Origin: Candidatus Sericytochromatia bacterium
GTDB taxonomy: Bacteria > Cyanobacteriota > Sericytochromatia > S15B-MN24 > VGJW01
Length of the DNA: 64,000 nt
Assembly (NCBI GenBank): GCA_035286125.1
Contig: JAYKIS010000003.1
Location: 6,264 to 70,263, forward strand
Reading direction: 5' to 3'
Shown: in pieces, positions 11,383 through 52,146 of the stretch
How the letters are laid out: each line of letters begins with the position of its first letter
Numbering within the stretch: the stretch's first letter is position 1
Made by a program: the position numbers and the translations under genes
The notes under the pieces: model-generated
Told to the model about the DNA's origin: nothing
Seen by the model: only the letters and a program-made list of their open reading frames with translations
Databases searched by the model: none

Positions 11383-11456
<74 letters not shown>

Positions 11457-15013: not shown

Positions 15014-15098
15014 GGAGGAGTGGCGGAGCGGTCGATCGCGCCGGTCTTGAAAACCGGAGATGGGCAACCATCCGTGGGTTCGAATCCCACCTCCTCCG
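15014..15098 (+). tRNA. tRNA-Ser (anticodon TGA)
   Basis: Acceptor GGAGGAG/CTCCTCC, anticodon loop CTTGAAA, long variable arm, T-loop GGTTCGAATCC, discriminator G. Confidence 0.85.
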
Positions 15099-25990: not shown

Positions 25991-26063
25991 GGCGCGGTAG
26001 CTCAGTTGGTAGAGCACTAGACTGAAAATCTGGGTGTCGGCGGTTCGATTCCGCCCTGCGCCA
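25991..26063 (+). tRNA. tRNA-Phe (anticodon GAA)
   Basis: Close match to canonical tRNA-Phe (TAGCTCAGTTGGTAGAGC, anticodon loop CTGAAAA, GGTTCGATTCC). Discriminator A, no CCA. Confidence 0.9.
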
Positions 26064-27439: not shown

Positions 27440-28699
27440 CTACTTGCCCACCTGGCCGATGATGGAGAAGACCGGCAGGTACATCGCCACGACGATGGAC
27501 CCGACGAGAATGCCGATCGAGCCCATCATGATGGGCTCGAGCAGGCTCGTCAGCGACTTGATGGAGGCCTCGACCTCGCTGTCGAAGAAGTCCGCGACCT
27601 TCTCCAGCATGGAGTCGATCTGCCCGGTCTCCTCTCCAACCGAGACCATCTGCGTGACCATGGGCGGAAAGATATCGGCCTTCTCCAAGGGTCTGGAGAT
27701 ACCTTCACCTTCACGGACGGCTTGGCGAATGTCCTCCATGGCCCCGGAGATAACGGTATTGCCCGCCGAGTCACGGACAATCTCGAGTGCAGACAACAGG
27801 GGCACACCGGAGCGCAACAACGTTCCGAGCGTCCGGGTGAAGCGTGCAACCGCCACCTTCTGGACGAGGGCGCCAATCACGGGCAACTGCAGCATGTACT
27901 TGTCGATCAGGTGCCGCCCCTGATCGGTTGCGGCGAACCGCTTGTAGAGGAAGACAAGGATGGCGATGGTACAGACCACGCTCAGACCGGCCGGCCCTCG
28001 GGCATTCTCGGACAGGTCGATCATGAACTGGGTGTAGGCCGGCAGCTTGGCATTCATCTGCGCGAACATGTTCGAGAAGACCGGCAGGATGAAGAGCAGC
28101 ATGCCGATGAAGATCGACACCGCCATGATGGCGACGGCAATCGGATAGGTCATGGCTGACTTCACCTGGCGGCGAAGCTTGGCGGACGCCTCATTGAAGC
28201 TCGCGATGCGCTGGAGGACCTCGTCCAGCACACCACCCGCTTCACCGGCACGAACCATGCCAACGAAGAGATTGTCGAAGACCTCAGGGTGCTTGGCCAT
28301 CGCATCCGAGAGGGCCGTGCCTGCCTCGACACGCATTCGGATATCGTTGGCCACCTCGGAAAGGCTTGGATTGGACGTCTGTTCGGCCATGATGGACAGG
28401 GCACGGACCAAGGCCACCCCGGAGTTGATCATGGTCGCCAACTGCCGCGTGAAGATCGAGAGGTCCTCGAGCTTGACCTTGGGCTTCAGGAAGCTGAAGT
28501 TGCGCAAGCGCTCGCTCAAGCTGGGACCGAGGTCGGCCGCCTCTTCCCCCGTCCCGTCCTTGGCAACCCGAAGCGGCGTGACGATGATGTAGCCCATCTC
28601 GCGCAGCTTGTCCCGGACCTCTTCTGGAGAGTTGCCCGGCATGACCTTGATGAAGGACTTGCCGCTGTGGTCCCGGACCTTGCAGCTGTACTGGGGCAT
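27440..28699 (-). CDS. pilC: Type IV pilus assembly platform protein PilC (GspF family)
   Basis: Two GspF repeats, 3 TM helices, start at internal ATG 28699 (MPQYSCKVRDHSGKSFIKV). Confidence 0.9.
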   Translation of the reverse strand: MPQYSCKVRDHSGKSFIKVMPGNSPEEVRDKLREMGYIIVTPLRVAKDGTGEEAADLGPSLSERLRNFSFLKPKVKLEDLSIFTRQLATMINSGVALVRALSIMAEQTSNPSLSEVANDIRMRVEAGTALSDAMAKHPEVFDNLFVGMVRAGEAGGVLDEVLQRIASFNEASAKLRRQVKSAMTYPIAVAIMAVSIFIGMLLFILPVFSNMFAQMNAKLPAYTQFMIDLSENARGPAGLSVVCTIAILVFLYKRFAATDQGRHLIDKYMLQLPVIGALVQKVAVARFTRTLGTLLRSGVPLLSALEIVRDSAGNTVISGAMEDIRQAVREGEGISRPLEKADIFPPMVTQMVSVGEETGQIDSMLEKVADFFDSEVEASIKSLTSLLEPIMMGSIGILVGSIVVAMYLPVFSIIGQVGK

Positions 28700-28709
28700 C
28701 GTAACGCTC

Positions 28710-29816
28710 CTAGTGCGCCATCGACTGGGCCATGGACCCTGCCGGTGCCGCACCAATCATGCGGATCAGGTCATCCGGGCGCGACGTCTTGGAAATGGCG
28801 TCCTCATAGGCAATCTGCTTGTTGAGGTAGAGGTCGCGCAGCGCGTTCTCGAGCGTCTGCATGCCGTGCTTCTGCCCCGTCTGGATCGACGAGTAGATCT
28901 GGGCCGTCTTGCCTTCGCGAATCAGATTGGCGATGGCGGGCGTATTGATCATGATCTCGAGGGCCATGCATCGACCCTTGCCGGCCTTTCCGGGCTCACC
29001 CATCTTGGGCACCAGGGTCTGCGAAAGCACGGCGACCAGCGAGTTGGAAATCTGCACGCGAATCTGCTGTTGCTGGTGGGGCGGGAAGACGTCGACGATA
29101 CGGTCGACCGTCTGCATCGCCGAGCTGGTGTGCAGCGTACCGAAGACGAGGTGGCCGGTCTCCGCAGCCGACATGGCGAGGCGGATGGTCTCCAGGTCGC
29201 GCATCTCACCGACCAGGATGACGTCGGGATCCTCGCGCAGCGCCGCCCTCAGGGCGTTGTCGAAGCTTCGCGTGTCGGCACCCAGCTCACGCTGGTTGAC
29301 GAGGCTCATCTTGGGCGTATGGACGAACTCGATGGGGTCCTCAATCGTCAGGATGTGCTCGGCCCGCGTTGCATTGATGTTGTCGATCATAGCGGCGAGG
29401 GTCGTCGACTTGCCGGAACCCGTCGGACCCGTGACCAGGATGACACCGCGAGGCTTGTGGGTCAGCTCGCGGATAAGCGGGGGCAAGCCCAGGTCCTCGA
29501 AGCGAGGGACCTTAGACTTGATGGTACGCAGGACTGCGGCGAAGGCACCCTTGGACCGGAACGCGTTGACGCGGAACCGGCCCAGGCCCACGACACCGTA
29601 GGAGCAGTCCAGCTCCAGGGTCTGCTCGAGGGTCTTGCGCTGGTCGTTCGAAAGAATCGAGAAGATCAGGCGCTGCGTGTCCTCAGGGGACAACGGCTCA
29701 TAGTCGGTGCGCACCAGCTTGCCGTTGATGCGGATGATCGGGGGGACGCCGGAAGAGATATGCAGGTCCGATCCATCCCGGTCGAAGGTCAGCTGCAGCA
29801 GTTCTTCCATGTACAT
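28710..29816 (-). CDS. pilT: Twitching motility ATPase PilT
   Basis: Walker A GPTGSGKST, AIRE/GMQTxxxxLxxL-type motifs, size 368 aa. Confidence 0.9.
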   Translation of the reverse strand: MYMEELLQLTFDRDGSDLHISSGVPPIIRINGKLVRTDYEPLSPEDTQRLIFSILSNDQRKTLEQTLELDCSYGVVGLGRFRVNAFRSKGAFAAVLRTIKSKVPRFEDLGLPPLIRELTHKPRGVILVTGPTGSGKSTTLAAMIDNINATRAEHILTIEDPIEFVHTPKMSLVNQRELGADTRSFDNALRAALREDPDVILVGEMRDLETIRLAMSAAETGHLVFGTLHTSSAMQTVDRIVDVFPPHQQQQIRVQISNSLVAVLSQTLVPKMGEPGKAGKGRCMALEIMINTPAIANLIREGKTAQIYSSIQTGQKHGMQTLENALRDLYLNKQIAYEDAISKTSRPDDLIRMIGAAPAGSMAQSMAH

Positions 29817-29860: not shown

Positions 29861-31774
29861 CTACGCGGCAAGCAGGGTCCCGCAATTGGGACAACCCTTC
29901 CAGCCCTCTTCCACCCGCTGGTGGCACTGTGGGCACATCTTCTTGAGATCCACCTGACAGAAGGGACACTTGATGAACTCGTCCCCGACGGGATTACGAC
30001 ACCCGGGACAGAGTTTCTCTTCGCCTTCGCCGGAGAACGTCACGCGGACGACCTCCTCCAGCGAGGTGTGGCCATCCCGGACCAGCTTCAAGGAATAGTC
30101 CTTGAGCGTCACCATGCCGCTCTGCTTGGCCGCGTAGCGAATCAGGGCCGTCGAAGCGCCACGACCCACCAGATCACGAAGCTCGTCGTTCATCTTCATG
30201 ATCTCGTAGACGCCCAGGCGCCCCGAATAGCCCTTGTTGCACTGGGGGCAACCCACGGCCTTGTGGAAAGTCGGCAGGGCACCGGGATCATAGCGGTAAC
30301 CGACAAAGTCGAGATCACGAACCTCGGGCGTGTAGGGAACCTTGCAGGACGAGCAGAGGCGACGGACGAGCCGCTGGGCGACGACGCCAATGGTCGCGGC
30401 GGACACCAGGAAGCCCTCGACCCCCATCTCGGAGAGCCTCATGATGGCTCCGGGCGCGTCGTTGGTATGCAGCGAGGTGAACACCAGGTGCCCCGTAAGG
30501 GCGGACTCGATGGCGATCTTGGCAACCTCGTAGTCGCGCGTCTCGCCAATCAGCATGATGTCCGGATCCTGCCTCAGGAAGGCCTTGAGGATGCGGGCAA
30601 AGGTGTAACCGATCTCGGGACGCGCCTGGCACTGGATGAGGCCCGGGGCATCGTATTCGATGGGGTCTTCGGCCGTGGAGATATTGACGTCCGGCGTGTT
30701 GCGCTCGTTCAGGATCGAATAGAGCGTGGTCGTCTTGCCTGAGCCCGTAGGTCCCGTCACGAAGATGATGCCGAAAGGGCGGTTGGCCATCTCGCGCACC
30801 AGTTCGAGGTCCTCGGGATAGAGGAACAGCTTGTCGAGCCCCAGAGTCGTGCTGCCCTTGTCCAGGATACGCATGCAGACCTTCTCGCCATGCTTGGACG
30901 GCAATGTCGACACGCGGAAGTCCACATCCCGATTCTTGAAACGCACGCGGATGCGGCCATCCTGAGGCAACCGCTTCTCCGAGATATCCAGCGAAGCCAT
31001 GATCTTGAAACGGCTCACGAGGGCGGGCAGGAACTTCTTGGGAATCAGGGACTGCTTGTGCAGCAGGCCGTCGATGCGATATCGGACCTGGACCTCGTTC
31101 TCGAAAGGTTCTATGTGGATGTCCGAGACCTTCTTGCCGCCCAGCGCGCCCGTCAGGATAGAGTTGGCAAGCTTGATGATGGGCGATTCCTCGCTCATCC
31201 GCTCGAGGTCAGTGACCTTGAGGTTGTCCTCCTTCTGCTCGATCATCTCGATGTCGTCATCGCCGGCCAGGTCGCCCAGAACGGATGCGAGGTCGGGCAC
31301 GGCCCCGCCGGAACCCTGAGCGGCAACTTGCTCGGGCGATTCGCCGCGCATCTGGTCCAGGAACCAGAAGAACTCGTCCTCGGTGATGACAACCTGCTGG
31401 ATGGATATGCCCTTGAGCATGAACCTGACGTCATCCAGCGCGATCAGATTCTGGGGGTCGACCATCGCCAGTTGCAGACGATTGTTCGTCAGCGACACCG
31501 GCACGATCATGTGCTGCCGGATCAGGTTCTCCGGGATGAGTTTCAGGACCTCGGGCGGAACCTTGGTCTTGCGCAGGTTGATGTAGCGCAAGCCGTACTG
31601 CAACTCGAGCGCGTCCTTGATCGTCGCCTCGGTGACATAGCCCTGCTTGATCAGGATGAGCCCGAGGGACTCCTTCGAGGCCTTCTGCACCTCGACGGCC
31701 TGGGCGAGTTGGGCCTCGGTGATCGCGTTCGCATTGAGCAGGATCTCCCCGAGCTTCATCTTGACGATGGCCAA
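29861..31774 (-). CDS. pilB: Type IV pilus extension ATPase PilB (GspE family) with extra C-terminal double zinc ribbon
   Basis: GSPII_E N-terminal domain, Walker A GPTGSGKTTT, canonical tetracysteine CSSC...CPQC, plus an additional ~55 aa CPGC-CPFC-CPQC-CPNC tail. Confidence 0.9.
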   Translation of the reverse strand: MAIVKMKLGEILLNANAITEAQLAQAVEVQKASKESLGLILIKQGYVTEATIKDALELQYGLRYINLRKTKVPPEVLKLIPENLIRQHMIVPVSLTNNRLQLAMVDPQNLIALDDVRFMLKGISIQQVVITEDEFFWFLDQMRGESPEQVAAQGSGGAVPDLASVLGDLAGDDDIEMIEQKEDNLKVTDLERMSEESPIIKLANSILTGALGGKKVSDIHIEPFENEVQVRYRIDGLLHKQSLIPKKFLPALVSRFKIMASLDISEKRLPQDGRIRVRFKNRDVDFRVSTLPSKHGEKVCMRILDKGSTTLGLDKLFLYPEDLELVREMANRPFGIIFVTGPTGSGKTTTLYSILNERNTPDVNISTAEDPIEYDAPGLIQCQARPEIGYTFARILKAFLRQDPDIMLIGETRDYEVAKIAIESALTGHLVFTSLHTNDAPGAIMRLSEMGVEGFLVSAATIGVVAQRLVRRLCSSCKVPYTPEVRDLDFVGYRYDPGALPTFHKAVGCPQCNKGYSGRLGVYEIMKMNDELRDLVGRGASTALIRYAAKQSGMVTLKDYSLKLVRDGHTSLEEVVRVTFSGEGEEKLCPGCRNPVGDEFIKCPFCQVDLKKMCPQCHQRVEEGWKGCPNCGTLLAA

Positions 31775-31849
31775 GGTGTCCTACCCTCCGTAACAACAAC
31801 GCATGCAAAAGGTCCTGAAGGGTTACTTACCCGCCCGGAGCCCGTTGTC

Positions 31850-33691
31850 TCAAGTGTCGCGGGTCGAGATGACTTCCCAGACCCCGCCGATGTCCAGTTC
31901 CGCCACCCCTTCGGCAAGCACGACGAGAACGCCGATCTCGAGCCCGACGATCATCAGCGAGCCCTCGCTGCAATCCATCATGGCCCAGCCCAGCTTGCCG
32001 ACTTGCATCTTTCGGACCTGGACCTCCAGGTTGGCGAACATCGAGGACGCAATCGCTCCCAGCATTTCACGGTCATGATCCGAGGTGAGCTGGGCCGAGA
32101 TAACGAGGCCATCCCGGCCGACAATCAAGGCACCCGACGCACCGCGAACCGCCTGGATGCGCTGGAGCATCTGGTCCAGCTCCTCGCCACGCGCCGACGT
32201 GATGAGCCGGGTACGGCCATCTCCTCCTTCGCCACGGTCGATGATCTTCTTGAGCTGGTTCTGGTCCACGAGCATCTTGCCCACGGAGACCAAGCCGTCA
32301 GGACGCGGCGGCTCGGGTATCCCGGCGGGAGGCGCAGGCACGCCGGGCGTGGCCGTAGGCGGCTCCGGAGCGACAGGCGGCGGCGCAGGCGGCATCAGGG
32401 GTGCCTCGGGGACAACGGCTTCAAGCGGAGGCAGATAGGCGGCCTCCGGCGCGACTGGCGCCTGCCAGCCAGCATCGCCACCCTCGACCGGCGGTTGCCA
32501 GGCGACCTCTGCAGTCTCGGCAGGAGCCTGCCAACCACCCTCGACAGGCGGTTGCCAACCGGCATCGGCACCCTCGACTGGAGCCTGCCAACCCCCGTCG
32601 GCACGAGGCTGCCAACCGGCATCAGCGCCCTCGACTGGCGCCTGCCAGCCACCGTCGGCAGGAGGCTGCCAACCGGCATCAGCGCCCTCGACAGGGGGCT
32701 GCCAGCCGGCATCGGCACCTTCGACAGGCGCTTGCCACCCGCCGTCGGCAGGCGGTTGCCAGCCGGCATCGGCACCTTCGCCAGGGGCTTGCCATCCGCC
32801 GTCGGCAGGGGGCTGCCAGCCGGCATCAGCGCCCTCGGCAGGAGCCTGCCAGCCCCCTTCAGCAGTTTCGGGAGGGGCCTGCCAGCCGGCATCCGTCGCC
32901 GGTGCGGCATCTTGCCATCCCTCGACGACAGGTGCATCCGCGGCAACAGGTGCGGTCTCAGCGGCGCCGGGCAACATGCCCATGAACTCACCCATCAGGT
33001 CCGCTGCCGGCGACGAGACGGGTGCTTCCGGGTGGGCAGCCTCGGCTGCAGGTTGCGGGACCGGGGCAGCTGGCGCCACGGGCGCTGCGGGCTGTGGTTC
33101 GAAGCTGTCGAAGAGACTGTCCAGCGAGGCATCGACGCCATCAGGAAACAGCTTGTTGGGGTCCGAGGCAGCGGCATCCTCGGTCTGCTGGGGGACTGGT
33201 GCCGGAGCAGGTACCGCCATCTGGGGCGCTGGTCCGGGGGACTGTTCCCAACTGCTCGAGGCTCCCCAGCCATCATCCGCAGGGACATCCGACGCAGCCG
33301 GATCCTCGGCAGTCGCCGAACCACTCAGCCAATCCTGCCCCATCGGACCGGCATCGGCCCAATCGGTGGCAGCGGCCCCGCCATCGCCTTCGGCAGCGGA
33401 AGCCCAGGCATCACCGCTCTCACCCCAGTTCGCCTCACCGCCCCAATTGCTGTCCGAGGAGTCCCAACCGGCCTCGGCGGCCAGCGACGTCTCCTCGTCG
33501 GACCAACCGGCGTCATCGGCCACGGGCGCCGCATCACCGCCCTTGCGCTTCTTGCCCTTGGCAGGCTTTGCCTTGCCCTTGCCCCCCGGCAACAAGCGTG
33601 CGAGGAAGCCCATCAGGCCACCGTAGGGGGCCTTGCCGGACTTGCCCTTCCCCTTGCCCTTCGTGGCGGCTTTGGACCTTTGCCTTGCCAT
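31850..33691 (-). CDS. Roadblock/LC7 (MglB-like) domain protein with long disordered N-terminal region: polybasic KG-rich head and at least 11 acidic Trp-containing tandem repeats
   Basis: C-terminal ~110 aa VRGASGALIVGRDGLVISAQLTSD...LGAIASSMFANLEV...LMIVGLEIGVLVVLAEG has the Robl/LC7 pattern. The N-terminus opens KGKGKGKSGKAPYGG...KGKAKPAKGKKRKGG and then carries repeating GWQAPVEGADAGWQPPADG units. Confidence 0.7.
   Translation of the reverse strand: MARQRSKAATKGKGKGKSGKAPYGGLMGFLARLLPGGKGKAKPAKGKKRKGGDAAPVADDAGWSDEETSLAAEAGWDSSDSNWGGEANWGESGDAWASAAEGDGGAAATDWADAGPMGQDWLSGSATAEDPAASDVPADDGWGASSSWEQSPGPAPQMAVPAPAPVPQQTEDAAASDPNKLFPDGVDASLDSLFDSFEPQPAAPVAPAAPVPQPAAEAAHPEAPVSSPAADLMGEFMGMLPGAAETAPVAADAPVVEGWQDAAPATDAGWQAPPETAEGGWQAPAEGADAGWQPPADGGWQAPGEGADAGWQPPADGGWQAPVEGADAGWQPPVEGADAGWQPPADGGWQAPVEGADAGWQPRADGGWQAPVEGADAGWQPPVEGGWQAPAETAEVAWQPPVEGGDAGWQAPVAPEAAYLPPLEAVVPEAPLMPPAPPPVAPEPPTATPGVPAPPAGIPEPPRPDGLVSVGKMLVDQNQLKKIIDRGEGGDGRTRLITSARGEELDQMLQRIQAVRGASGALIVGRDGLVISAQLTSDHDREMLGAIASSMFANLEVQVRKMQVGKLGWAMMDCSEGSLMIVGLEIGVLVVLAEGVAELDIGGVWEVISTRDT
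32400..32900 (-). repeat. Coding tandem DNA repeats (about 27-30 and 57-nt periodicity) encoding the GWQ decapeptide array
   Basis: Direct near-identical repeats visible in the sequence (ggcgcctgccagcc...gccctcgac...), in frame within the 31850..33691 ORF. Confidence 0.7.
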
Positions 33692-33798
33692 GCGTGTTCC
33701 TCGAGAAGCGCGTTCTGACCGGGCCGAACAAGGTCAGGACGACATGCTATGTTACCCGGGCCCCGACGATTCTCACGCCGGCCGCCTGAGGCTGCGGA

Positions 33799-36177
33799 TC
33801 AGCTGCGCCGACGCGCCCCGAGTCGACGTTCGAGTTCGGCCAGCAAGCCAGCCTCGAGGGCTTCAACCTCGGCATCTTTCAAGGTCCGATCCTCGGCCCC
33901 GAAATCCAGGGCCATCGCGAGGCTGACCGAGCCGTCGGGCAACCCGGGGCCGGCATAGCGATCAAAGCAGCGCACGGAGCGTACGGCCTGCCTGCCTGCA
34001 TCGCGAATGATCTCCTCGACCTCTGCCGCCGTCACCGTCGCCGCCACCACGACCGCGAGATCGCGACGTGCAACCGGATGGCGATCGAAAGGCCGGAAAA
34101 GGCGTGGGCCGGTATCAGCGGCTAGCGCGGGCAGCCGTGCCTCAACCAGGACCACACGCCCCCAGGCTGCCAAATCGAGCCTTTCAAGGAGTTCGGGATG
34201 CACCTCGGCTGCCACGCAGGCTCCCGAGGGCCCACCCTGGGCCGTTCGTCCGGGCTGAAGGCCGGGTAGGGTCGTAGCCCGCCATCCGGCTGTCCCGGCC
34301 ACACCCAGGCAAGACATGAGCGACTCGAGCAGTCCTTGTCCCCAACGGACGTCCGGTTGCAGGGCCTGAGGCACATGAAGCCAAGGCCCGGTCTCGAGGG
34401 CACCCGCGATCAGCGCTGCGAAACGCTGCTCCTCGCGAATCACCCCCTCCTCAACCCACGCGACCTGACCTATCTCGAAGAACACCGCCCGGTCTGCCCC
34501 GTCGCGCCGACGGCGGGCCGCGATATCGAGCAACCCGGGCCAGAGGGAACGTCGAAGGACCTGGAAGTCGCCCATGCCCTCGGCAACGGCGACGGCAGGC
34601 CACGACACGAAGAAATCGTCCCGATGGGCCGGAACGAGAGAGGGCAGAACCACCTCATCCAGGCCGGCGGCGGTGGCCCAGCCGCGCAACGTCGCCGCGA
34701 GATCCGGCTTGCCGGCGCCCGCGACCCGGACCATCGGGGGCAGAATAGCCGGCACCGCATCGAGACCACACTGGAAGGCGACTTCCTCGACGAGGTCCAC
34801 CTCACGCTGCAGGTCGAGGCGTCGCCAATCAGGGGGCGTGACCCGCCAGGTCGCACCGGTGGCATCCACCCTGGCACCGATACGCGCAAGAGCGGCGAGC
34901 TGGCCTTGATCCTGAACATCATGGCCAAGCAATCCACGGGTTCGCGCTGGCCGGAATGACACGACAGGAGCAACGATGGCGTCGGGATCCGGAACCAGAT
35001 CCGCCACCTGACCGGGAGTGCCACCGGCAACGTCCACGATGCGCCGCACGGCCTCGGCAAGCAGGGCGGGAACAGCTGCTGCATCCACACCACGCGAGAA
35101 ACGCTGGGCAGATTCCGAGTTCACCTGGTGGCGCCGGGCCGTCGCACGAACAGCAGCCGGATCGAAACTGGCCGCCTCGAGCAGCAAGGCCGTCGTACCC
35201 GCGTGGACGGCCGTCGCCTGACCGCCCATCACGCCCGCAAGGGCGACAGGCCTGTCCGCATCCGCAACCACCAGGTCGGCCCCATCCAGTTGCACCACGC
35301 GACCGTCAAGAAGGGCAAGCGTCTCGCCGGCCTTGCCCATGCGGACTTCCACGCGCCCTCCCTGCAGGCACTGGGCATCAAAGGCATGCATCGGCTGACC
35401 GAACTCGAGCAACATCATGTTGGTGACATCGACGATGGCATCCACAGCGCGCAAGCCGGCCGCTTCGAGGATGCGCGCAACCTTGGGCAAGGAAGGAGTC
35501 ACGCGCACTCCCTCGATGGCACAGGCGGCATAGCGCCAGACACCCTCTGGCGCCATGGTCAGATGAGGTGCCACGGGTCCACCTGGCGGCATACCATCCG
35601 GGGTCGGCATGGGCACCAGTTGGCCCACACCCAGCGCCGCCAACTCACGTGCCACACCATGGGCCGACAAGAGATCACCGCGATGGGCTGGCACGGCCAG
35701 TTCAAGCACGACCTCCCCCAGGTCCATCGCTTCGGCAATGGGCATCCCCAACTCGGTTTCCGAAGGCAGGACCCAGACGCCCTCGACGCCATCCCCGAGC
35801 GCCAGTTCCTCGAGCGAGCAGAACATGCCCTGGGACATCACGCCCCGCATCTTCGAGGCGGCAATGGCCTTGCCCGTCGGCAGGACCGCCCCATCCAGCG
35901 CGACAGGCACGATATCTCCGGCCTGAACATTGGTCGCGGCCGTGACGATCTGCAAGGCACCTGCAGCGCCGGCATCCACCGCACAAACACGAAGTCGATC
36001 TGCATCCGGATGGGCTGCGGCCTCGACGATACGTCCCGTGATGACCCGATCCATCCCCGGCGCGAAGCGCTCGACACCTTCGAGCTCAAGGGGGGAGCGC
36101 GCGAGCGTCGCGCTGACCTCGCTCAGGCTCCAGGTCCCTCCAAGGCGGCCGCGCAGCAGATTCAGGGGCAGACGCAC
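33799..36177 (-). CDS. pheT: Phenylalanyl-tRNA synthetase beta subunit
   Basis: N-terminal tRNA-binding domain, B3/4 and B5 domains, 792 aa. Confidence 0.95.
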   Translation of the reverse strand: MRLPLNLLRGRLGGTWSLSEVSATLARSPLELEGVERFAPGMDRVITGRIVEAAAHPDADRLRVCAVDAGAAGALQIVTAATNVQAGDIVPVALDGAVLPTGKAIAASKMRGVMSQGMFCSLEELALGDGVEGVWVLPSETELGMPIAEAMDLGEVVLELAVPAHRGDLLSAHGVARELAALGVGQLVPMPTPDGMPPGGPVAPHLTMAPEGVWRYAACAIEGVRVTPSLPKVARILEAAGLRAVDAIVDVTNMMLLEFGQPMHAFDAQCLQGGRVEVRMGKAGETLALLDGRVVQLDGADLVVADADRPVALAGVMGGQATAVHAGTTALLLEAASFDPAAVRATARRHQVNSESAQRFSRGVDAAAVPALLAEAVRRIVDVAGGTPGQVADLVPDPDAIVAPVVSFRPARTRGLLGHDVQDQGQLAALARIGARVDATGATWRVTPPDWRRLDLQREVDLVEEVAFQCGLDAVPAILPPMVRVAGAGKPDLAATLRGWATAAGLDEVVLPSLVPAHRDDFFVSWPAVAVAEGMGDFQVLRRSLWPGLLDIAARRRRDGADRAVFFEIGQVAWVEEGVIREEQRFAALIAGALETGPWLHVPQALQPDVRWGQGLLESLMSCLGVAGTAGWRATTLPGLQPGRTAQGGPSGACVAAEVHPELLERLDLAAWGRVVLVEARLPALAADTGPRLFRPFDRHPVARRDLAVVVAATVTAAEVEEIIRDAGRQAVRSVRCFDRYAGPGLPDGSVSLAMALDFGAEDRTLKDAEVEALEAGLLAELERRLGARRRS

Positions 36178-36186
36178 GGCACTCTC

Positions 36187-37218
36187 CTAGAACTGGGCCA
36201 AGAAACGGGCATCGTTCTCCCACAGCAGGCGGATATCCGGAATCCGGTGCCGCAGCATGGCAATGCGCTCCACACCAAGACCGAAGGCGAAGCCCGAATA
36301 ACGCTCGGAATCGATGCCTACGGCCCCGAGGACTGCCGGATCCACCATCCCGCAGCCAAGTATCTCCAGCCAGCCCGTATGGGAGCAGACCCTGCAGCCC
36401 GCGCCCTCGCAGAAGACGCAACGAACATCCATCTCTGCCGAAGGTTCCGTGAAGGGGAAGAAACTGGGCCGCAACCTCATGGGCGTCCCGGGGCCGAAGA
36501 CACCGTCGGCAAAGGCCTGCAGCACACCCTTGAGGTGGGCAAAGGTGATGCCCTCATCCACGTGCAGGCCCTCGAGCTGGTGAAACATCGGGAAGTGGCG
36601 CGGCGTCACGGCGTCGCGACGATACACCCGACCCGGAGCAATGATCCGGATGGGAGGCCTTCCCGCTGCCATGTGGCGAATCTGGACAGACGAGGTCTGG
36701 GTGCGGAGCAGGCGACCGTCCGGCAGGTAGAACGTATCTTTGGGGTCCCGGGCCGGGTGATCATCCGGGGTATTGAGCGCCGAAAAGTTGTGCCAGGCGT
36801 CCTCGACCTCCGGACCCTCGGCAAGCCCATAGCCCAAGCTACCGAAAAGGGCAACCAACTCGTCACGGACCTGGGACAGGACGTGCGCATGGCCCATCGG
36901 GCGACCGATGGAAGGCATCGAGAGATCCAACGCTTCGGATTCGATACGCGCAGCCGTCTCGGCCGCACGGAGCAGACGCTCCCTCTCCGCGTGAGCAGCC
37001 TCAAGGGCCACCTTGAGACGATTGACGGCCCCGCCATAGGGCTTGCGCTCTTCCGCCGGCAAGGTCGGAATCATCTTGAGGGCCTGGGTGACCCGACCGC
37101 GCTCACGACCGAGGAACTCGGTCAGCCAGGCCTCGAGTCCAGCCGTCGTCGACACCGTGCCCAGACGATCAAGCGCTTCCCGCTCAATCGCCCCGAGTGC
37201 TTCCTGAGCGGTCGTCAT
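36187..37218 (-). CDS. pheS: Phenylalanyl-tRNA synthetase alpha subunit
   Basis: Class II aaRS motifs (FRPSFFPFTEPS, GCGMVDP). Confidence 0.95.
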   Translation of the reverse strand: MTTAQEALGAIEREALDRLGTVSTTAGLEAWLTEFLGRERGRVTQALKMIPTLPAEERKPYGGAVNRLKVALEAAHAERERLLRAAETAARIESEALDLSMPSIGRPMGHAHVLSQVRDELVALFGSLGYGLAEGPEVEDAWHNFSALNTPDDHPARDPKDTFYLPDGRLLRTQTSSVQIRHMAAGRPPIRIIAPGRVYRRDAVTPRHFPMFHQLEGLHVDEGITFAHLKGVLQAFADGVFGPGTPMRLRPSFFPFTEPSAEMDVRCVFCEGAGCRVCSHTGWLEILGCGMVDPAVLGAVGIDSERYSGFAFGLGVERIAMLRHRIPDIRLLWENDARFLAQF

Positions 37219-37255: not shown

Positions 37256-37711
37256 TCAGAAGGGGTACGGACCGTCGAAGTCCGCCTCGCCGGCTCCCCA
37301 CGGGTCTGCGTCGGCCGCAGGCAAAACCGCCTTGGGCGCGACGGGGCGTTCCGCATCATAGGCTGACGTCGAGGCAGGAAGACCAGCATCCAGCGAAGCG
37401 CCGATCGCCTGAACGACAGCAGCCTCGATGAAGATCCGGGTCGCGTTCTGCTCGTCCCGGAACGTCTTCATGCGTCCCTCGACGGCCACGACCGACCCGG
37501 GCTTCAACTGAGCCGCCACCTCGGCCTGCCGCCCGACGGCCTCGACGGAGAAGATGTCGAAACGTGGAGCATCCTGCTCGTTCCGCGCCGGCTTGGAAAC
37601 ACGAATGCGGAAACGGGTCAGATCGTAGCCTGTGGGCGTGGTACCACGATGCGGCACACCCTGGGCGTCGGTATCGACCGTACCCACGAGCACAATCTGG
37701 TTGACCGACAC
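37256..37711 (-). CDS. ssb: Single-stranded DNA-binding protein
   Basis: OB-fold N-terminus, acidic C-terminal tail ...DFDGPYPF. Confidence 0.9.
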   Translation of the reverse strand: MSVNQIVLVGTVDTDAQGVPHRGTTPTGYDLTRFRIRVSKPARNEQDAPRFDIFSVEAVGRQAEVAAQLKPGSVVAVEGRMKTFRDEQNATRIFIEAAVVQAIGASLDAGLPASTSAYDAERPVAPKAVLPAADADPWGAGEADFDGPYPF

Positions 37712-42829: not shown

Positions 42830-43449
42830 GGCTGCACCGTGCCGATGCGAGGTTCCTGCCCCAGGCGCAAACGCTTCATGTTGTCCCTGTGCCGGAAGAT
42901 GATCCAGGGACCAGCGAGACCGCCAAAGACCACGACGGGCAAGGGAACGGGCCACGGTCCCACGCCGAGGTTCCCGAGCCACAAGGCCAGAGGCATCGCC
43001 GCCGCCGCCCCGATACTGGCCACGGAAACGGTGCGCGTCGCGGCAAGAAGCGCAATCCAGATGAGCAGCACGACAGCTGCGCCAGCAGGCGAGAAGGTGA
43101 GTAGCGCACCCGCCGTCGTCGACACGCCCTTGCCACCGGCACCCCGAAGCCACGGTGAATGACCGTGGCCCACGAGGGCGAGCAGCGCCGCAGCGACCGC
43201 GACGGGCAAGGATGCCCCCAGGGACTCGGCAAGCAGGATGGCCAGTGCACCCTTGCCGGCATCAAGCAACACGCAGCACGCCCCGATGAGCTTGCCCGCG
43301 GTCCGTGCGGCATTGGTGGCACCGACGTTGCGACTGCCCAGGGAGCGGACGTCCCGGCCCGTGAACCATCGCGGCAGCAGATAGGAGAAGGGAACGGTCC
43401 CGAGAAGCCAGGCCAAGGGCAGGACAAGCCACCAACCGACCGGGTTCAA
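42826..43449 (-). CDS. plsY: Glycerol-3-phosphate acyltransferase PlsY
   Basis: SRNVGATNAAR signature, 5 TM helices. Confidence 0.9.
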   Translation of the reverse strand: MNPVGWWLVLPLAWLLGTVPFSYLLPRWFTGRDVRSLGSRNVGATNAARTAGKLIGACCVLLDAGKGALAILLAESLGASLPVAVAAALLALVGHGHSPWLRGAGGKGVSTTAGALLTFSPAGAAVVLLIWIALLAATRTVSVASIGAAAAMPLALWLGNLGVGPWPVPLPVVVFGGLAGPWIIFRHRDNMKRLRLGQEPRIGTVQP

Positions 43450-44771
43450 CGTTCGCGGCGCTCCCGACGCGGCCGGTAGATGAACCGTATGGGCACGCCG
43501 ACGAAGCCGAAAGCATCCCGCATCCGATGCTCCAGATACCGCGTGTAGGAGGGCACGGAAAGTTCGGGTTCGTTGCAGAACAGGATGAAGGTCGGTGGAT
43601 GGGTCGGCCCCTGCTGCGCGTAGTAGATCTTCAGGCGCCGGCCATGTCGGGTCGGAGCGGGTTGCATGGCCGTTGCCTCGGACATGACCTCGTTCAGGAC
43701 TCCGGTCGTGATGCGACGGCCGTTCTCGTCAGCGACCTTGATGGCGGTGTCCAGCACCTGCAACGCGCGCTGGCCCGTCAGGGCAGAGATGAAGACGACA
43801 GGCGCGAAGTCCGCGTGCGGAAGGGCCGCCAGCACGTCGCGGCGAAAGGGCTCCATGGTGTGCTGGTCCTTGGGTACGAGATCCCATTTGTTGATGACGA
43901 GCACCAGGCCCTTGCCGCCTTCGACCGCCATCTCGGCCAGCCGCTTGTCCTGATCCGTGACACCCATCGTGCCGTCCATGACAAGCACCACGACATCGGC
44001 ACGCTCGAGGGCCTTGAGCGCGCGGACGACGGAGAACTGTTCCACACCATAGTCGACCTTGGACTTCCGTCGGATACCCGCCGTATCGACCAACCAGAAT
44101 CGCCGCCCCTCGTGTTCGATGGCCGTGTCGATGGCGTCTCGCGTCGTCCCGGAGACGGGGGATACGATCATCCGGTCCTCGCCGATCAGGCGATTGACGA
44201 GTGAGCTCTTGCCCGCATTGGGACGTCCGACGACCGCAATGCGGATGGAGTCGTCTTCCTCGTGGGCATCGACCACCGGCAAGCCGACGAGCATCGCATC
44301 CAGCATGTCGCCCGTACCCGTTCCGTGCACCCCTGATACGGGCCAGGGCTGCCCAAGCCCGAGGGCATGGAAGTCGAGGACCTGTTCGAAGTCCTCGTAC
44401 CTGTCGCACTTGTTGACGACCACAAGGACGGGCTTGCGGGACTTGCGCAGCAGATGGGCAATCTCGTCATCAGCGGGCAAACGACCTGCCTTGCCGTCCA
44501 CGACGAACAGGACGAGGTCGGCCTCGGCAATGGCAAGGCGGGCCTGATCGGCGACCTGCGCCAGCATATCGTCATCGGTACCCGGGACGATGCCTCCGGT
44601 GTCGACGGCCAGGAACTGGCGACCACACCATTCGACGCGGGCATAGAGGCGGTCTCGGGTCACCCCCTCCTCACCGTGGACGATGGCCTCGCGTGACCCG
44701 ACGAAGCGGTTCAGCAGCGTGGATTTGCCGACATTGGGACGACCGACGATGGCCACGATGGGCAGGTTCAA
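43446..44771 (-). CDS. der: Ribosome-biogenesis GTPase Der (EngA), tandem GTPase domains plus KH-like domain
   Basis: Two G-domains (GRPNVGKS, GRPNAGKSS). Confidence 0.95.
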   Translation of the reverse strand: MNLPIVAIVGRPNVGKSTLLNRFVGSREAIVHGEEGVTRDRLYARVEWCGRQFLAVDTGGIVPGTDDDMLAQVADQARLAIAEADLVLFVVDGKAGRLPADDEIAHLLRKSRKPVLVVVNKCDRYEDFEQVLDFHALGLGQPWPVSGVHGTGTGDMLDAMLVGLPVVDAHEEDDSIRIAVVGRPNAGKSSLVNRLIGEDRMIVSPVSGTTRDAIDTAIEHEGRRFWLVDTAGIRRKSKVDYGVEQFSVVRALKALERADVVVLVMDGTMGVTDQDKRLAEMAVEGGKGLVLVINKWDLVPKDQHTMEPFRRDVLAALPHADFAPVVFISALTGQRALQVLDTAIKVADENGRRITTGVLNEVMSEATAMQPAPTRHGRRLKIYYAQQGPTHPPTFILFCNEPELSVPSYTRYLEHRMRDAFGFVGVPIRFIYRPRRERRER

Positions 44772-45607: not shown

Positions 45608-46964
45608 GGAACAGACCTCCATGCCCGTCGATGCCCCCCCGACCCGCTCCATGCCCGCCACGTTCCGGCCAGCCTCGGCCACGTCTGGCGCAGCGGGCTG
45701 GCAAGTAGGCGGAAACCCTCTGGCCGAGCTGGCCGAGGACCTCGGCACCCCCGTCTGGGTGGTCGACACCGGCGAAATCCGGTCACGTCTCCAACGCCTC
45801 GTTGCGGCGTGCAGTGCCCACTGGCCCTCCGGTTCGCGGATTCTCTTCGCAAGCAAGGCGCATGGCCATCCGGCCATCGCCCGGCTGATGGCCGACGGAG
45901 GAGCCGACCTCGAGACGGTATCCATCGGCGAGGTCGAGGCGGCCGTGGCGGCTGGGGTAGCGGGGGCTCGCATCGTCCTGCAGGGCCACGGACGGACACC
46001 CGACGATCACGTCCGGGCTCTTGCCCATGGCTTGCGGAGCTTCCACGTCGATGCTTGCGACGAGATTGCCCCGCTGGCCGAGGCAGCCGCTCGCGCCGAT
46101 GTCACGATCGATGTGCTGGTGCGCGTCCTGCCGGGTATTGCTGCAGACACCCACCCTGCCCTCGCGACAGGCGTCGCAGGCAGCAAGTTCGGCCTGCCCG
46201 AGGGCCAGGAGCTGGATCGCGCGATCTCGGACATCCGCCGTGCCGGCCATCTGCGGCTGGTCGGCCTGCAGTTCCACACGGGTTCCCAGATCCACGACTC
46301 CGAAACATTCAGGGCGACCGGGGCCGTGGCCGGGAGAATCGCCGCGGACCTGTACCGCCGCTTGGGCTGGATGCCCGCCGTGCTGGACCTCGGAGGCGGT
46401 CTGGCCGTGCCCTACGGCCCGGACGATGCCGAGCCCGGGCCGGAAGCCTGGATTGCGGCGTTGGCCGAAGGCTTCGCCGAAGGTTGGCCCGACGCTCCGT
46501 CCCCCTGGCCCCAGCTGGTCGTGGAACCGGGCCGCTGGCTGGTCGCTACGGCCGGGTGCACGGTCTACACCGTCCTCTCCGTCAAGCCTGCCAATGGCTG
46601 CGTCGTTGTCGATGGGGGCCTCGCGGACAACCCCCGGGTCGCCTTGTACGAAGCGAGCTACGTCCACGAAGGCCTGCTGCCCGGGCAATCGGAGGGCGGA
46701 CGGACGTGGCGGCTCGTCGGCAGGACCTGCGAGGAGGGCGACGAGTTGGGTACCGTGATGCTTCGGGACCCCCGCCCCGGTGATCGCATCGTCGGCTGGG
46801 TCGCAGGAGCCTACCACTACGCCATGGCCTCCCGCTACAACCGCCTGCCCCGACCTGCGCTCGTCCTGGTCGAGGATGGCCGTCGCGCGGTGGCCAGCCG
46901 CCGTGAGCATCCTGCCGACCTGCTGGCTGCGGAATTCCCCTCGCCCGAGTGGTCCCTGCGATGA
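45606..46964 (+). CDS. lysA: Diaminopimelate decarboxylase
   Basis: PLP-dependent Orn/DAP/Arg decarboxylase fold: FASKAHGH PLP-lysine region, LDLGGGL, VVEPGRWL. True start is probably ATG 45621. Confidence 0.85.
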   Translation: MEQTSMPVDAPPTRSMPATFRPASATSGAAGWQVGGNPLAELAEDLGTPVWVVDTGEIRSRLQRLVAACSAHWPSGSRILFASKAHGHPAIARLMADGGADLETVSIGEVEAAVAAGVAGARIVLQGHGRTPDDHVRALAHGLRSFHVDACDEIAPLAEAAARADVTIDVLVRVLPGIAADTHPALATGVAGSKFGLPEGQELDRAISDIRRAGHLRLVGLQFHTGSQIHDSETFRATGAVAGRIAADLYRRLGWMPAVLDLGGGLAVPYGPDDAEPGPEAWIAALAEGFAEGWPDAPSPWPQLVVEPGRWLVATAGCTVYTVLSVKPANGCVVVDGGLADNPRVALYEASYVHEGLLPGQSEGGRTWRLVGRTCEEGDELGTVMLRDPRPGDRIVGWVAGAYHYAMASRYNRLPRPALVLVEDGRRAVASRREHPADLLAAEFPSPEWSLR

Positions 46965-47815
46965 GCACGTCCGCCATTCTCGACGCCCTGGTGCGGCTGC
47001 TTTCGGTCCTGCGCTGGCAGGACCTGCTCGACATCACCATCGTGTCCCTGGTGTTCTATCGGCTGTTTCTGCTGATCCGCGGCACCCGCGCCGTCCAGTT
47101 GCTGCGCGGCCTGTTGCTGCTGCTGACGGCCTATCTTGTCGCCAATGCCCTGCAACTGCACACCATCACGTGGCTGGTCCAGAGCACGGCCACGATGCTG
47201 ATCGTGGCGGTCCCTCTGGTCTTCCAGCCGGAGTTGCGACGGGCGCTCGCGATGCTGGGGCAGGGCGAGATATTCCGTCCCGAGCGATTCGCGGCGGCAC
47301 GCCCCGACGAAGAAGTCCAGCATCTCATTGGCGAACTTGTGGCAACAGCCCGTGTACTTACCAGCCGCAAGGTCGGTGCGCTGATCATCCTCGAACGCCA
47401 GACCGGACTCAAGGAGTTCGCCGAGACAGGCACCGCCATTGGCGCCAAGGTATCGGCCGAATTGCTAACCAGCCTGTTCCTTCCCGGGAGCCCGCTGCAC
47501 GATGGCGCGGTCCTGCTGCGTGGCGACCGTATCGTGGCCGCCGGTGCCCTGCTGCCGCTTTCCGAGACCATCCGGCGCTCGGCGCGACGTCCGATCGGCA
47601 CCCGCCACCGGGCTGCGCTGGGCCTCACGGAAACGACGGATGCCCTGGCCATCGTGGTCTCCGAGGAGACCGGGGCGTTGTCCCTTGCCGAGCAGGGCCA
47701 GTTGCACCGTTTCCTGACTGAAGACGAGTTGCGGGGGCGCCTCGAAGGTGCCCTGATGCTGTCGCGCCCCCCCGTGCCGAGTCCGCTCGGCCGACTCCTG
47801 CTGAGTCGCCGATGA
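46961..47815 (+). CDS. cdaA: Diadenylate cyclase CdaA (c-di-AMP synthase), membrane-anchored
   Basis: 3 N-terminal TM helices. DAC domain with GALIIL...DGA and RHRAALG motifs. Confidence 0.85.
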   Translation: MSTSAILDALVRLLSVLRWQDLLDITIVSLVFYRLFLLIRGTRAVQLLRGLLLLLTAYLVANALQLHTITWLVQSTATMLIVAVPLVFQPELRRALAMLGQGEIFRPERFAAARPDEEVQHLIGELVATARVLTSRKVGALIILERQTGLKEFAETGTAIGAKVSAELLTSLFLPGSPLHDGAVLLRGDRIVAAGALLPLSETIRRSARRPIGTRHRAALGLTETTDALAIVVSEETGALSLAEQGQLHRFLTEDELRGRLEGALMLSRPPVPSPLGRLLLSRR

Positions 47816-50788: not shown

Positions 50789-51430
50789 ATGGACCGGCGT
50801 GGGGAAGTTGCGGCTCGCCTGGCTGGGGGCAAGCTTGTTGCGGTGCTGCGGACCGGCATGGCGGACGAGGCCATATGGCTTGGCGAATGCCTGCTCGATC
50901 TCGGTTGGCCGGCCATCGAGGTGACGTGGACGATTCCCGATCCGGGCCGGGTACTACGCCATCTGGCGGAACGTGCACTCCAGGGAGCGACCCTGGTAGG
51001 TGCAGGCACGATTCGCAACAGACCCGATGCCCTCGAAGCCATTGCCGCCGGCGCCCGGTACCTGGTCAGTCCGGCGCGGCCCGCGGGACTGGCCGATTTG
51101 GCACACCACCATGACCTGCCCGTCGTCCTCGGGGCCCTCACGCCCCACGAGATCCACGAGGCAATCGAGGAAGGGGCTGACTTCGTGAAGATTTTCCCCA
51201 TCCACCGCGTTGGCGGGGCCGGGTACCTTCGTGACGTTCGCGCGCCGTTCCCCGACCTGCGAGCCTTCGCATCCGGGGGCATCGAGCCAGGTGATGCCGG
51301 AGCCTATCTGCAGGCGGGAGCGACCGTCGTCAGCCTGGGCCAGACCCTGACACCCGGCGACACCCTCGGTTGTCGCAGTGCCGAACGCGTGGCTGCGTGT
51401 GTGGCAACGGCCCGCGCATCCCTCGCCTAG
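50789..51430 (+). CDS. eda: KDPG/KHG aldolase
   Basis: IEVT, GAGTI and KIFP motifs. Start at internal ATG 50789. Confidence 0.8.
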   Translation: MDRRGEVAARLAGGKLVAVLRTGMADEAIWLGECLLDLGWPAIEVTWTIPDPGRVLRHLAERALQGATLVGAGTIRNRPDALEAIAAGARYLVSPARPAGLADLAHHHDLPVVLGALTPHEIHEAIEEGADFVKIFPIHRVGGAGYLRDVRAPFPDLRAFASGGIEPGDAGAYLQAGATVVSLGQTLTPGDTLGCRSAERVAACVATARASLA

Positions 51431-52146
51431 CGTCCCCTCGGCCGCTCGGGATCCACCTCCAGGCGCAAGCCCTGCCCGCGAATCGACAGCAAATGCACGG
51501 GACGGGCGGGATCCGGCTCGACCAGCCGGCGCAGGCGCATCACGAAGTTGTCGATCGTGCGGGTGGCACCTCCGGAAGGAAATCCCCAGACCGCCTCCAT
51601 CAAGGCATCGCGACCCACGATCCGTCCCTTGGCCTCGAAAAGGTGGCGCAGCAGGCGCAATTCCAGAGAGGTCAACCGGACCTGTTCATCCCCACGCAAC
51701 ACCTCACCACGCGCGAAGTCCACCTCACATTGTCCGATGCGCAGCTTGCCAACGGCCTCGGCAGGGGCTTCCCGATGCCAATCCTGACGTCTGAGCAAGG
51801 ATGAAATCCGAGCCAGCAACTCCTCGAGGTTGAAGGGCTTGGTGACATAGTCATCCGCACCCACATGCAAGCCAAGGACCTTCTCTCGGTCGAAGCCTCG
51901 TGCCGTCAGCATCAGGATAGGCGTGCGGACACCCGATGCGCGCCAGCCCCGGCACAGGTCGATGCCGCTCAAGCCCGGAAGCATGACGTCCAGCACGATC
52001 AGATCCGGATGGTCCCCTCCCCGGATCAACTGGTCGGCAGCCTCGCCGTCCACGACGACGGAGACCTCATGGCCCTCCGTGACAAGGTTGTAGCGCAAAC
52101 CCTGGGCGATGTGCGCCTCATCCTCGACGATCAGGATTCTCGCCAT
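51427..52146 (-). CDS. OmpR/PhoB-family response regulator
   Basis: Receiver domain (D at LIVLDVMLPG) plus winged-helix output (RLLRHL..., VWG). Confidence 0.9.
   Translation of the reverse strand: MARILIVEDEAHIAQGLRYNLVTEGHEVSVVVDGEAADQLIRGGDHPDLIVLDVMLPGLSGIDLCRGWRASGVRTPILMLTARGFDREKVLGLHVGADDYVTKPFNLEELLARISSLLRRQDWHREAPAEAVGKLRIGQCEVDFARGEVLRGDEQVRLTSLELRLLRHLFEAKGRIVGRDALMEAVWGFPSGGATRTIDNFVMRLRRLVEPDPARPVHLLSIRGQGLRLEVDPERPRGR

Follow-up and report, generated by a model that had tools for sequence, protein, structure and literature searches.

The stretch of DNA analysed here (64,000 nucleotides of contig JAYKIS010000003.1, positions 6,264 to 70,263, assembly GCA_035286125.1, Candidatus Sericytochromatia bacterium; hereafter the window) carries a gene, referred to below as X (31850..33691, minus strand), whose product ends in a Roadblock/LC7 domain and which lies directly upstream of pilB, pilT and pilC, the motor genes of the type IV pilus. 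The open reading frame (ORF) and its translation give 613 codons with an ATG start, a GAGG sequence about 8 nt 5' of the start codon and a stop codon at 31850-31852. The minus-strand order, secD, secF, rpsF, an ssb-like gene, pheS, pheT, X, pilB, pilT, pilC, queE, metG, follows from the ORFs together with Pfam and NCBIfam; an earlier note, made from the letters of the sequence alone, had read the part pheS-pheT-X-pilB-pilT-pilC in the same way. Related loci are designated L### and related proteins P####.

The upstream neighbours of X are pheS (36187-37218) and pheT (33799-36177), both identified by Pfam on the minus strand. Downstream, pilB (29861-31774, minus strand) encodes a protein with an MshEN domain bearing a cyclic di-GMP (c-di-GMP) motif, a T2SSE ATPase domain and a C-terminal double zinc ribbon (Pfam and NCBIfam). 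It is followed by the genes of the retraction ATPase PilT (28710-29816, minus strand; TIGR01420, 504.8 bits) and of the platform protein PilC (27440-28756, minus strand), in which Pfam finds two T2SSF repeats. The spacer between X and pilB (31775..31849, minus strand) comprises 75 nt, with GGAGG before the TTG start of pilB, and a spacing of 74-75 nt is kept in L001-L004. The terminator scan detected no terminator-like hairpin in this spacer, and folding gave no unusual structure (z-score 0.63). The promoter and terminator scans gave only shuffle-level counts, and Rfam, applied to the window and six related loci, returned tRNAs only, with no riboswitch or leader near X or pilB.

Conservation of X Upstream of the Pilus Motor Genes

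Sericytochromatia-type loci comprise L001-L024 and L045, and 24 of these extend downstream. X lies directly upstream of pilB-pilT-pilC, in the same orientation, in 24/24 of them; the gene order seen in the window thus recurs in other genomes. This adjacency persists as the identity of the Roadblock domain drops to 36-40% and that of PilB to 44-60%. The other flank is rearranged: pheS-pheT is found upstream of X only in L002-L010 and L045, and in L012 and L021, the two loci annotated upstream, phnD-phnC-phnE (phosphonate ABC transporter) precedes X, which is still beside pilB.

A stand-alone Roadblock paralogue of 109 aa is encoded between X and pilB in 11 loci of one Sericytochromatia clade (L012, L014-L018, L020-L024; positions 8471-8797 in L012). 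It shares 31-45% identity with the domain of X itself, scores 20.7-26.2 bits with Pfam, and is separated from X by 2-3 nt and from pilB by about 30 nt; the window contains no such gene. X-pilB gaps of 360-424 nt had been considered as sites of independent promoters, an interpretation rejected because alignment reveals the conserved 109-aa Roadblock gene within them. The tandem arrangement hints, as far as gene content can, at Roadblock pairing. Judged by gene order, the link of X to pilBTC is non-random and conserved, and it is not universal.

The Roadblock Domain

The C-terminal part of X (residues 471-613; 31853..32281, minus strand) opens with a conserved pre-domain helix, GKMLVDQNQLKKII, which leads into the Roadblock/LC7 domain and its C-terminal helix. 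Pfam Robl_LC7 (PF03259) scores 40 bits over residues 506-593 (cut-off 23, E=3.3e-10); it is the only Pfam match on X, so no LysM, TPR or ZipA_C is present. The AlphaFold2 (AF2) model, built on a 25-sequence alignment, has a core with a predicted local distance difference test score (pLDDT) above 90 and the topology alpha-beta-beta-alpha-beta-beta-beta-alpha (model elements H36-50, E55-62, E67-71, H78-98, E106-111, E114-120 and E124-130). In a Foldseek search against the PDB the top matches are all Roadblock proteins, with target-normalised template modelling (TM) scores of up to 0.88 and a probability of 1.00 to many of them. The Gly-Ala pair at the start of alpha-2 (G545, A546) is invariant. 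Thus, the Roadblock/LC7 fold which the earlier note had assigned to the C-terminus is borne out by profile and structure alike.

Composition of the Family

With the C-terminal 154 aa of X as the query, an exhaustive phmmer search gave 294 relatives at E<=1e-3, 76 of them at E<=1e-10, and nearly all 294 carry the Roadblock domain at the extreme C-terminus, behind an extension of 100-1500 residues. A word-indexed protein search with the same 154 aa returned a single relative, P0001. The genome scan, which covered one genome per species, yielded 112 relatives, and the taxonomy is taken from the best 80 of these. Nearly all of the 80 are titled as Sericytochromatia, among them Blackallbacteria and, at 98% identity, Tanganyikabacteria, or as Melainabacteria/Obscuribacterales; a minority is titled just "bacterium" or "Cyanobacteria bacterium", and three titles conflict (Stenomitos, Oculatellaceae, Proteobacteria). 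On the evidence of these best 80 of 112 relatives, the X family is confined to non-photosynthetic Cyanobacteriota, and the window is assigned to a Tanganyikabacteria-like member of that group. The labels Stenomitos, Oculatellaceae, Proteobacteria or Bacteroidota on L009, L041, L032 and P0151 probably reflect mislabelled bins of metagenome-assembled genomes (MAGs); L009 and the Sericytochromatia locus L010 are syntenic, and their identities to every protein of the window are nearly the same.

The shared architecture has three parts. The first is a membrane anchor, which is a Lys-flanked helix in the subgroup of X, one transmembrane helix in another subgroup and three to four such helices in Obscuribacterales. 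The second is an acidic, P/A-rich disordered linker with 1-9 copies of the motif (L/M)FDxxxLDxxLDxLF, and in the third an IGKxLVDQ helix leads into the Roadblock domain, which ends the protein. X itself possesses all three features: the anchor, a linker with at least one motif of the form h-F-x(3-6)-h-D-x-x-h-D-x-h-F, and the IGKxLVDQ helix with the Roadblock domain. Homologues from Obscuribacterales (L026-L081, e.g., L044 5514-8474) have 700-1400 aa and an N-terminal domain of three to four transmembrane helices; several of their phmmer matches fall into two stretches, suggesting two Roadblock domains, each after a KEFGRLS motif. In P0039 (223 aa), a prokaryotic RING finger (Prok-RING_1, 46.6 bits) replaces anchor and linker before the Roadblock domain.

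Databases label the family members only generically. A literature search on Roadblock proteins with pilus genes, on cyanobacteria and on Sericytochromatia pili found no account of the X family, and a 2025 review on cyanobacterial pili mentions neither Roadblock nor MglA/MglB. The family is regarded as a novel arrangement of parts around a known domain, restricted to an uncultured lineage.

N-Terminal Tip and Disordered Linker

The N-terminal tip of X (residues 1-55; 33527..33691, minus strand) is polybasic, contains a short amphipathic helix and is a putative inner-leaflet anchor. The first 60 residues include 17 K/R, and the net charge over residues 1-55 is +16. Between the polybasic flanks lies the helix GLMGFLARLL (AF2 helix 26-33, hydrophobic moment 0.48), and the Lys-flanked pattern G-h-L-x-x-h-L-x-x-F is kept in P0004, P0007, P0012, P0035, L005, L009 and L045. 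Prediction on X itself gave no transmembrane helix; other family members have one to four of them in place of the polybasic tip. The earlier note had considered this stretch DNA- or membrane-binding. Its polybasic character holds, and membrane binding is the favoured half of that proposal; a DNA-binding role is disfavoured, since in orthologues one to four transmembrane helices are swapped in at the same position.

The low-complexity, disordered N-terminal extension that had been recognised in the sequence covers the first ~470 residues and holds 25 Trp, 16 of them in the GWQ array described below. Its first segment (residues 56-175; 33167..33526, minus strand) is, by composition, acidic and disordered, with W-acidic motifs such as AGWSDEE and AGWDSSDSNWGGEANWGESGDAW; pLDDT is below 50, and all nine Trp at residues 63-148 are kept in L002-L004. 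Next comes a short linear motif found family-wide, NKLFPDGVDASLDSLFDSFE (residues 179-198; 33098..33157, minus strand), which corresponds to an acidic amphipathic helix of the pattern LFxxxVDxSLDSLF. Residues F182, L190, D191 and F194 are nearly invariant in alignment A2, and the helix at 185-194 (pLDDT ~60) is, besides that at 26-33, the sole helix that AF2 predicts in the N-terminal 470 residues. The motif occurs 1-9 times in other family members. The LFDxxxLDxxLDxLF motifs may resemble the CheY-binding peptides of FliM and CheZ. A second motif, SSPAADLMGEFMGMLPGAA (residues 226-244; 32960..33016, minus strand), is conserved in the clade: residues 227-244 (SPAADLMGEFMGMLPGAA) are identical in X, L002, L003 and L004 although synonymous divergence is saturated, and residue 226 is N in L004.

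The Trp-rich array (residues 255-413; 32453..32929, minus strand) consists of 16 (G/A)WQ units, as delimited by Trp spacing and by Tandem Repeats Finder (TRF) rows at 32478-32893. The W-Q units run from W259 to W409 with a spacing of 8 or 11 residues, mostly alternating, which results in a double unit of 19 aa. On the DNA, TRF reports a period of 57 nt with 3.3-4 copies, 85-87% matches and scores of 258-273. The tandem repeats reported earlier are thus real, whereas their description as at least 11 decapeptides is replaced by these 16 units. Copy number varies between orthologues, each aligned Trp is invariant, and the ratio of nonsynonymous to synonymous substitution rates (dN/dS) in the array is 0.05-0.14. 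A Pro-rich spacer (residues 414-470; 32282..32452, minus strand; 33% Pro over residues 421-480, dN/dS 0.06-0.09) leads to the pre-domain helix.

In the disordered part of the four orthologues compared, 23/23 aligned Trp and 4/4 Phe are invariant, against 50% invariance overall; the aromatic residues are accordingly what selection keeps in the linker, and repeat number and spacers drift. The GWQ architecture does recur in orthologues from other genomes, but it is limited to the Tanganyikabacteria clade. In the nearest outgroups other repeats stand in its place, namely QQQWDPN and FDxPAFD in L005 and FDAPAFGDAP in P0003. Aromatic-acidic repeats with differing sequences therefore recur in the family, as far as the sequences compared indicate.

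Proposed Function and Its Weighing Against a General Scaffold

It is proposed, tentatively and with somewhat less than even confidence, that X is a Roadblock adaptor which is held on the cytoplasmic side of the membrane and acts together with the type IVa pilus motor in Sericytochromatia. The polybasic flanks and the N-terminal helix would hold X on the inner leaflet, as suggested by the true transmembrane helices that orthologues have at the same position. The Roadblock domain would dimerise, in keeping with the general habit of such domains, which pair through helix alpha-2 and an edge strand; in loci with the 109-aa paralogue, a heterodimer with X may form instead. The dimer could serve as a docking platform for a nucleoside triphosphatase (NTPase), and the acidic linker of roughly 420 residues, with its invariant aromatics and acidic helix, could offer multivalent weak binding sites. 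The net effect would be that PilB/PilT, or their regulator, are concentrated or positioned at the membrane beside PilC, possibly at one particular place in the cell. Such an adaptor would work without a neighbouring MglA-type GTPase. Precedents are the Roadblock proteins that serve as NTPase platforms (PMC4316618; PMC3747258) and the Roadblock genes of archaeal pilus loci treated below.

Several observations weigh against this proposal. No other pilus genes (pilA, pilMNOQ) were found in the window, and co-transcription of X with pilB is only presumed. For about 45 homologues of Obscuribacterales/Melainabacteria, pheS-pheT immediately precedes the gene, and neither pilB nor pilT nor pilC is found within 8 kb; downstream of the X homologue, L044 encodes AhpC, DsbD and GH1. 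The position beside the pilus genes may therefore survive from an ancestral order pheST-X-pilBTC. The full-length AF2 model, moreover, contains no docking of the motif helix onto the Roadblock domain, and in one distant branch the family members are associated with extracytoplasmic function (ECF) sigma/anti-sigma and PATAN genes, not with pilB. The scaffold or regulator of the pilus motor suggested in the earlier note gains from the synteny in the 24 loci, but an exclusive association with pilus genes is not supported, given the ~45 Obscuribacterales loci.

The strongest alternative is that X is a general membrane scaffold (for example, for polarity, envelope, division or signalling to an unlinked partner) without a pilus-specific role, its place beside pilB being inherited. 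This is unlikely, although it accounts readily for the order pheS-pheT-X being common to both classes and for the X homologues of Obscuribacterales staying with pheST where pilBTC is missing. The design of anchor, linker and globular domain is also generic, as in ZipA or FimV/HubP. Inheritance alone explains less well why the X-pilB junction is kept in every one of the Sericytochromatia loci that reach it, despite the rearranged other flank, and why one clade retains a Roadblock duplicate inside the cluster with operon-like gaps of 2-30 nt. In addition, pheST is a housekeeping operon for which no functional connection to X is plausible. To judge from the loci compared, pheS-pheT-X-pilB-pilT-pilC is probably the ancestral order, which was disrupted on one side or the other depending on the lineage.

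The distant branch, in which the N-terminus is anti-sigma-like (zf-HC2), an ECF sigma gene stands upstream and a PATAN gene is nearby, likewise speaks for a general scaffold. Its members P0094, P0097 and P0099 have the motifs and the Roadblock domain of the family. A similar Cys-rich N-terminus opens P0094 and P0099, and in P0099 it resembles zf-HC2 with 22.1 bits against a cut-off of 22.2; in L085 the Cys-rich N-terminus is encoded by a separate upstream gene. The ECF sigma gene is upstream in L084 and L085, a LysM gene is near the family member in L083 and L084, and a convergent PATAN (PatA_N) gene of ~640 aa is nearby in 3/3 contigs of this branch (L083 38-4956; L084 1803-8989; L085 6093-15311), together with a conserved gene of unknown function. 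Near X, no PATAN-domain gene was found in the window or in L001-L081. PATAN-domain response regulators reportedly bind the pilus motor in Synechocystis (bioRxiv 10.1101/2021.06.11.447907), and MglB homologues near PATAN genes have been noted (PMC4316618).

The Question of a GTPase Partner

The proposed pilus adaptor could be extended to a GTPase-independent Roadblock system, a possibility that is regarded as doubtful. The tethered dimer or heterodimer would bind PilB/PilT hexamers directly, or a PATAN/CheY-type regulator of these, and the Trp/acidic linker together with the LFDxxxLDxxLDxLF motifs would cluster partners at the membrane. Such a system would represent an ancestral cyanobacterial mode of pilus positioning, predating the MglA/MglB switch and distinct from it.

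Quite improbable is the reading in which X is an orphan MglB-type GTPase-activating protein for an MglA/SofG-like small GTPase encoded elsewhere and controls pilus polarity as in Myxococcus and Thermus. The earlier note had placed the domain in the MglB family. The Roadblock fold of X does superpose on MglB (TM scores 0.68-0.78 when target-normalised, 0.63-0.67 when query-normalised), and the IMG label of one family member is Roadblock/LC7/MglB-family regulator. In Foldseek, however, MglB ranks 22nd or lower, at an identity of only 15-17%, behind Asgard Roadblocks, LAMTOR2/p14 and a Chlamydomonas axonemal chain (8glv). The profile of the X family, compared with the PDB, reaches 39 Roadblock-type sequences at E<=1 and not one MglB: the Asgard-archaeal Roadblocks 7f8m (E=7.5e-13), 9jue (3.1e-11) and 7yh1 (7.7e-10) are followed by CvnB, dynein Roadblock, Rv3364c, LAMTOR2 and MglC (E=0.26). 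The size differs as well, the PDB chains of MglB having 122-145 residues against the 613 aa of X with its membrane-tethered architecture. By these comparisons MglB is not a nearer relative of the X domain than archaeal or eukaryotic Roadblocks are; nothing specifically supports the MglB label, and X is not a classical MglB.

The absence of an adjoining mglA would not in itself decide the matter: 328 of 749 MglB-family genes are not beside mglA, and Group 5 MglA is present in Cyanobacteria (PMC4316618). In the same survey, a cognate partner is found within a few genes for 390 of 449 small MglA (PMC4316618). Using a Myxococcus xanthus MglA query entered by hand, tblastn against the window gave a best E of 1.9, and a search of 81 related loci, whose flanks reached up to 8-10 kb each, with this hand-entered query gave a best E of 0.51; both results speak against an orphan MglB. 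Among the real genes of the window, Walker-A motifs occur only in PilB, PilT and the two-domain GTPase Der (43446-44771), which is the sole GTPase there, in agreement with the earlier statement that the 64 kb hold no MglA-type GTPase. One further Walker-A, in an alternative frame at 9895-10311 (plus strand), was discarded, having no G3 or G4 motif.

Coding Status of the Whole Reading Frame

Length alone is no proof of a gene here, since high-GC DNA yields long spurious ORFs. An example is the 942-aa ORF at 30890-33718 (plus strand), antisense to X, which is taken to be a high-GC artefact because it also runs antisense through pilB. X was compared with its orthologues in the Sericytochromatia MAGs L002, L003 and L004, whose lengths are 578, 622 and 648 aa versus 613; all length differences among the four are in frame. 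For the Roadblock part (residues 471-613), dN/dS is 0.015-0.024 against the three orthologues. For five N-terminal segments (residues 1-470), where synonymous divergence ranges from 0.2 up to saturation, it is 0.05-0.39, counted only where dS is unsaturated. The dN/dS of 0.02-0.39 and the in-frame indels indicate that the whole ORF is translated and under purifying selection.

That only the C-terminal ~180 aa are made, from Met433 as in P0001, with the repeat-rich 5' part non-coding or a high-GC artefact, is hardly credible and, as far as comparative sequence data go, contradicted: the 181-aa gene call of P0001, the spurious ORFs of high-GC genomes and an atypical GC content at third codon positions (GC3) in the repeat segment would favour it, but the L001 contig, from which the metagenomic fragment P0001 comes, starts within the repeats and is open in this frame from base 1 onwards, the N-terminal segments show the substitution ratios, in-frame indels and invariant Trp and Phe given above, and the N-terminal anchor and motif are kept in orthologues at only 36-50% identity.

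Other Features of the Window

In PilB, the N-terminal c-di-GMP-binding MshEN motif is matched by NF053729 with 55.8 bits, and residues 589-632, after the ATPase domain, are rich in Cys and match the double zinc ribbon model of Pfam (DZR, 28.7 bits); going by match lengths, this tail is seemingly missing from some deeper Sericytochromatia PilB. The listed TTG start of pilC overlaps pilT by 47 nt. The real start probably lies ~19 codons downstream, since the NCBIfam PilC alignments begin at residue 20 and the gene call in L001 has 419 aa.

Between rpsF and pheS, a 151-aa gene (37256-37711, minus strand) has a weak SSB/PriB match of 35 bits, below the cut-off, and rpsR does not follow it. Two ORFs with coding-like GC3, at 53100-55799 (minus strand, 899 aa) and 61157-62371 (minus strand, 404 aa), have no Pfam match at E<=1e-5. 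Signalling genes are found elsewhere in the window, none adjoining the pilus genes; they encode a DAC-domain protein (c-di-AMP synthase type), an HD-GYP-like protein with an HD_5 match, and a response regulator of the OmpR type together with its histidine kinase, and the coordinates listed for them are 46949-47815 (plus strand), 62381-63928 (minus strand) and 51427-53080 (minus strand). The sole Rfam matches in the window are three tRNA genes, at 11383-11456 (minus strand), 15014-15098 (plus strand) and 25991-26063 (plus strand).

Comparison with Known Systems and Significance

FimV/HubP and ZipA combine an anchor, a long acidic or P/Q-rich repeat-bearing linker and a C-terminal binding domain that recruits cytoplasmic NTPase machinery, and FimV acts on type IV pili. 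The resemblance of X to them is one of design only, without homology, as X ends in a Roadblock domain. The features of FimV/HubP, a periplasmic LysM, a single transmembrane helix and a C-terminal FimV TPR, are lacking in X, which has only Robl_LC7 and no predicted transmembrane helix.

With MglB of M. xanthus and Thermus thermophilus, X shares the Roadblock/LC7 fold with its C-terminal helix and the genomic association with type IV pilus motility. It differs in the membrane-anchored disordered extension of 470 residues, in having no mglA nearby and in the low identity given above. MglB stimulates the hydrolysis of GTP by MglA, which it contacts through small residues on alpha-2. The best matches of X are the Asgard Roadblocks (9jue, 7yh1, 7f8m) and LAMTOR2/p14, with target-normalised TM scores of 0.77-0.88 and 19-24% identity. 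These archaeal and eukaryotic proteins are stand-alone domains of ~120 aa that work with Rag/Arf-like GTPases, whereas X is bacterial, tethered and encoded beside pilB. MglC, which pairs with MglB in M. xanthus, parallels the pair of X and its 109-aa paralogue, but it is a weak sequence match to the X family and belongs to the MglA polarity module. Roadblock genes are frequent in archaeal type IV pilus loci (PMC4858521). Those of arCOG02603 resemble X in lying inside such clusters with no described MglA partner; they are archaeal, an anchor, linker or motifs are not reported for them (PMC4858521), and the likeness to X is that of the shared domain.

Roadblock domains are known as platforms of small GTPases in MglB, Ragulator and their Asgard homologues. 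In the X family a membrane tether carries the domain at its end, GTPase genes are missing from the vicinity, and across Sericytochromatia the gene lies beside those of the extension ATPase (PilB), the retraction ATPase and the platform protein. As the hosts of X are uncultured, tests must be heterologous or computational. The linker is a natural case of disorder in which only the aromatics are constrained, which makes it useful for the study of multivalent "sticker" evolution in bacteria. If the pilus link is functional, X would represent a novel kind of adaptor for the pilus motor and might account for the way in which the non-photosynthetic sister lineages of cyanobacteria organise their motility, and it could provide a tie to the unexplained Roadblock genes in archaeal pilus loci.

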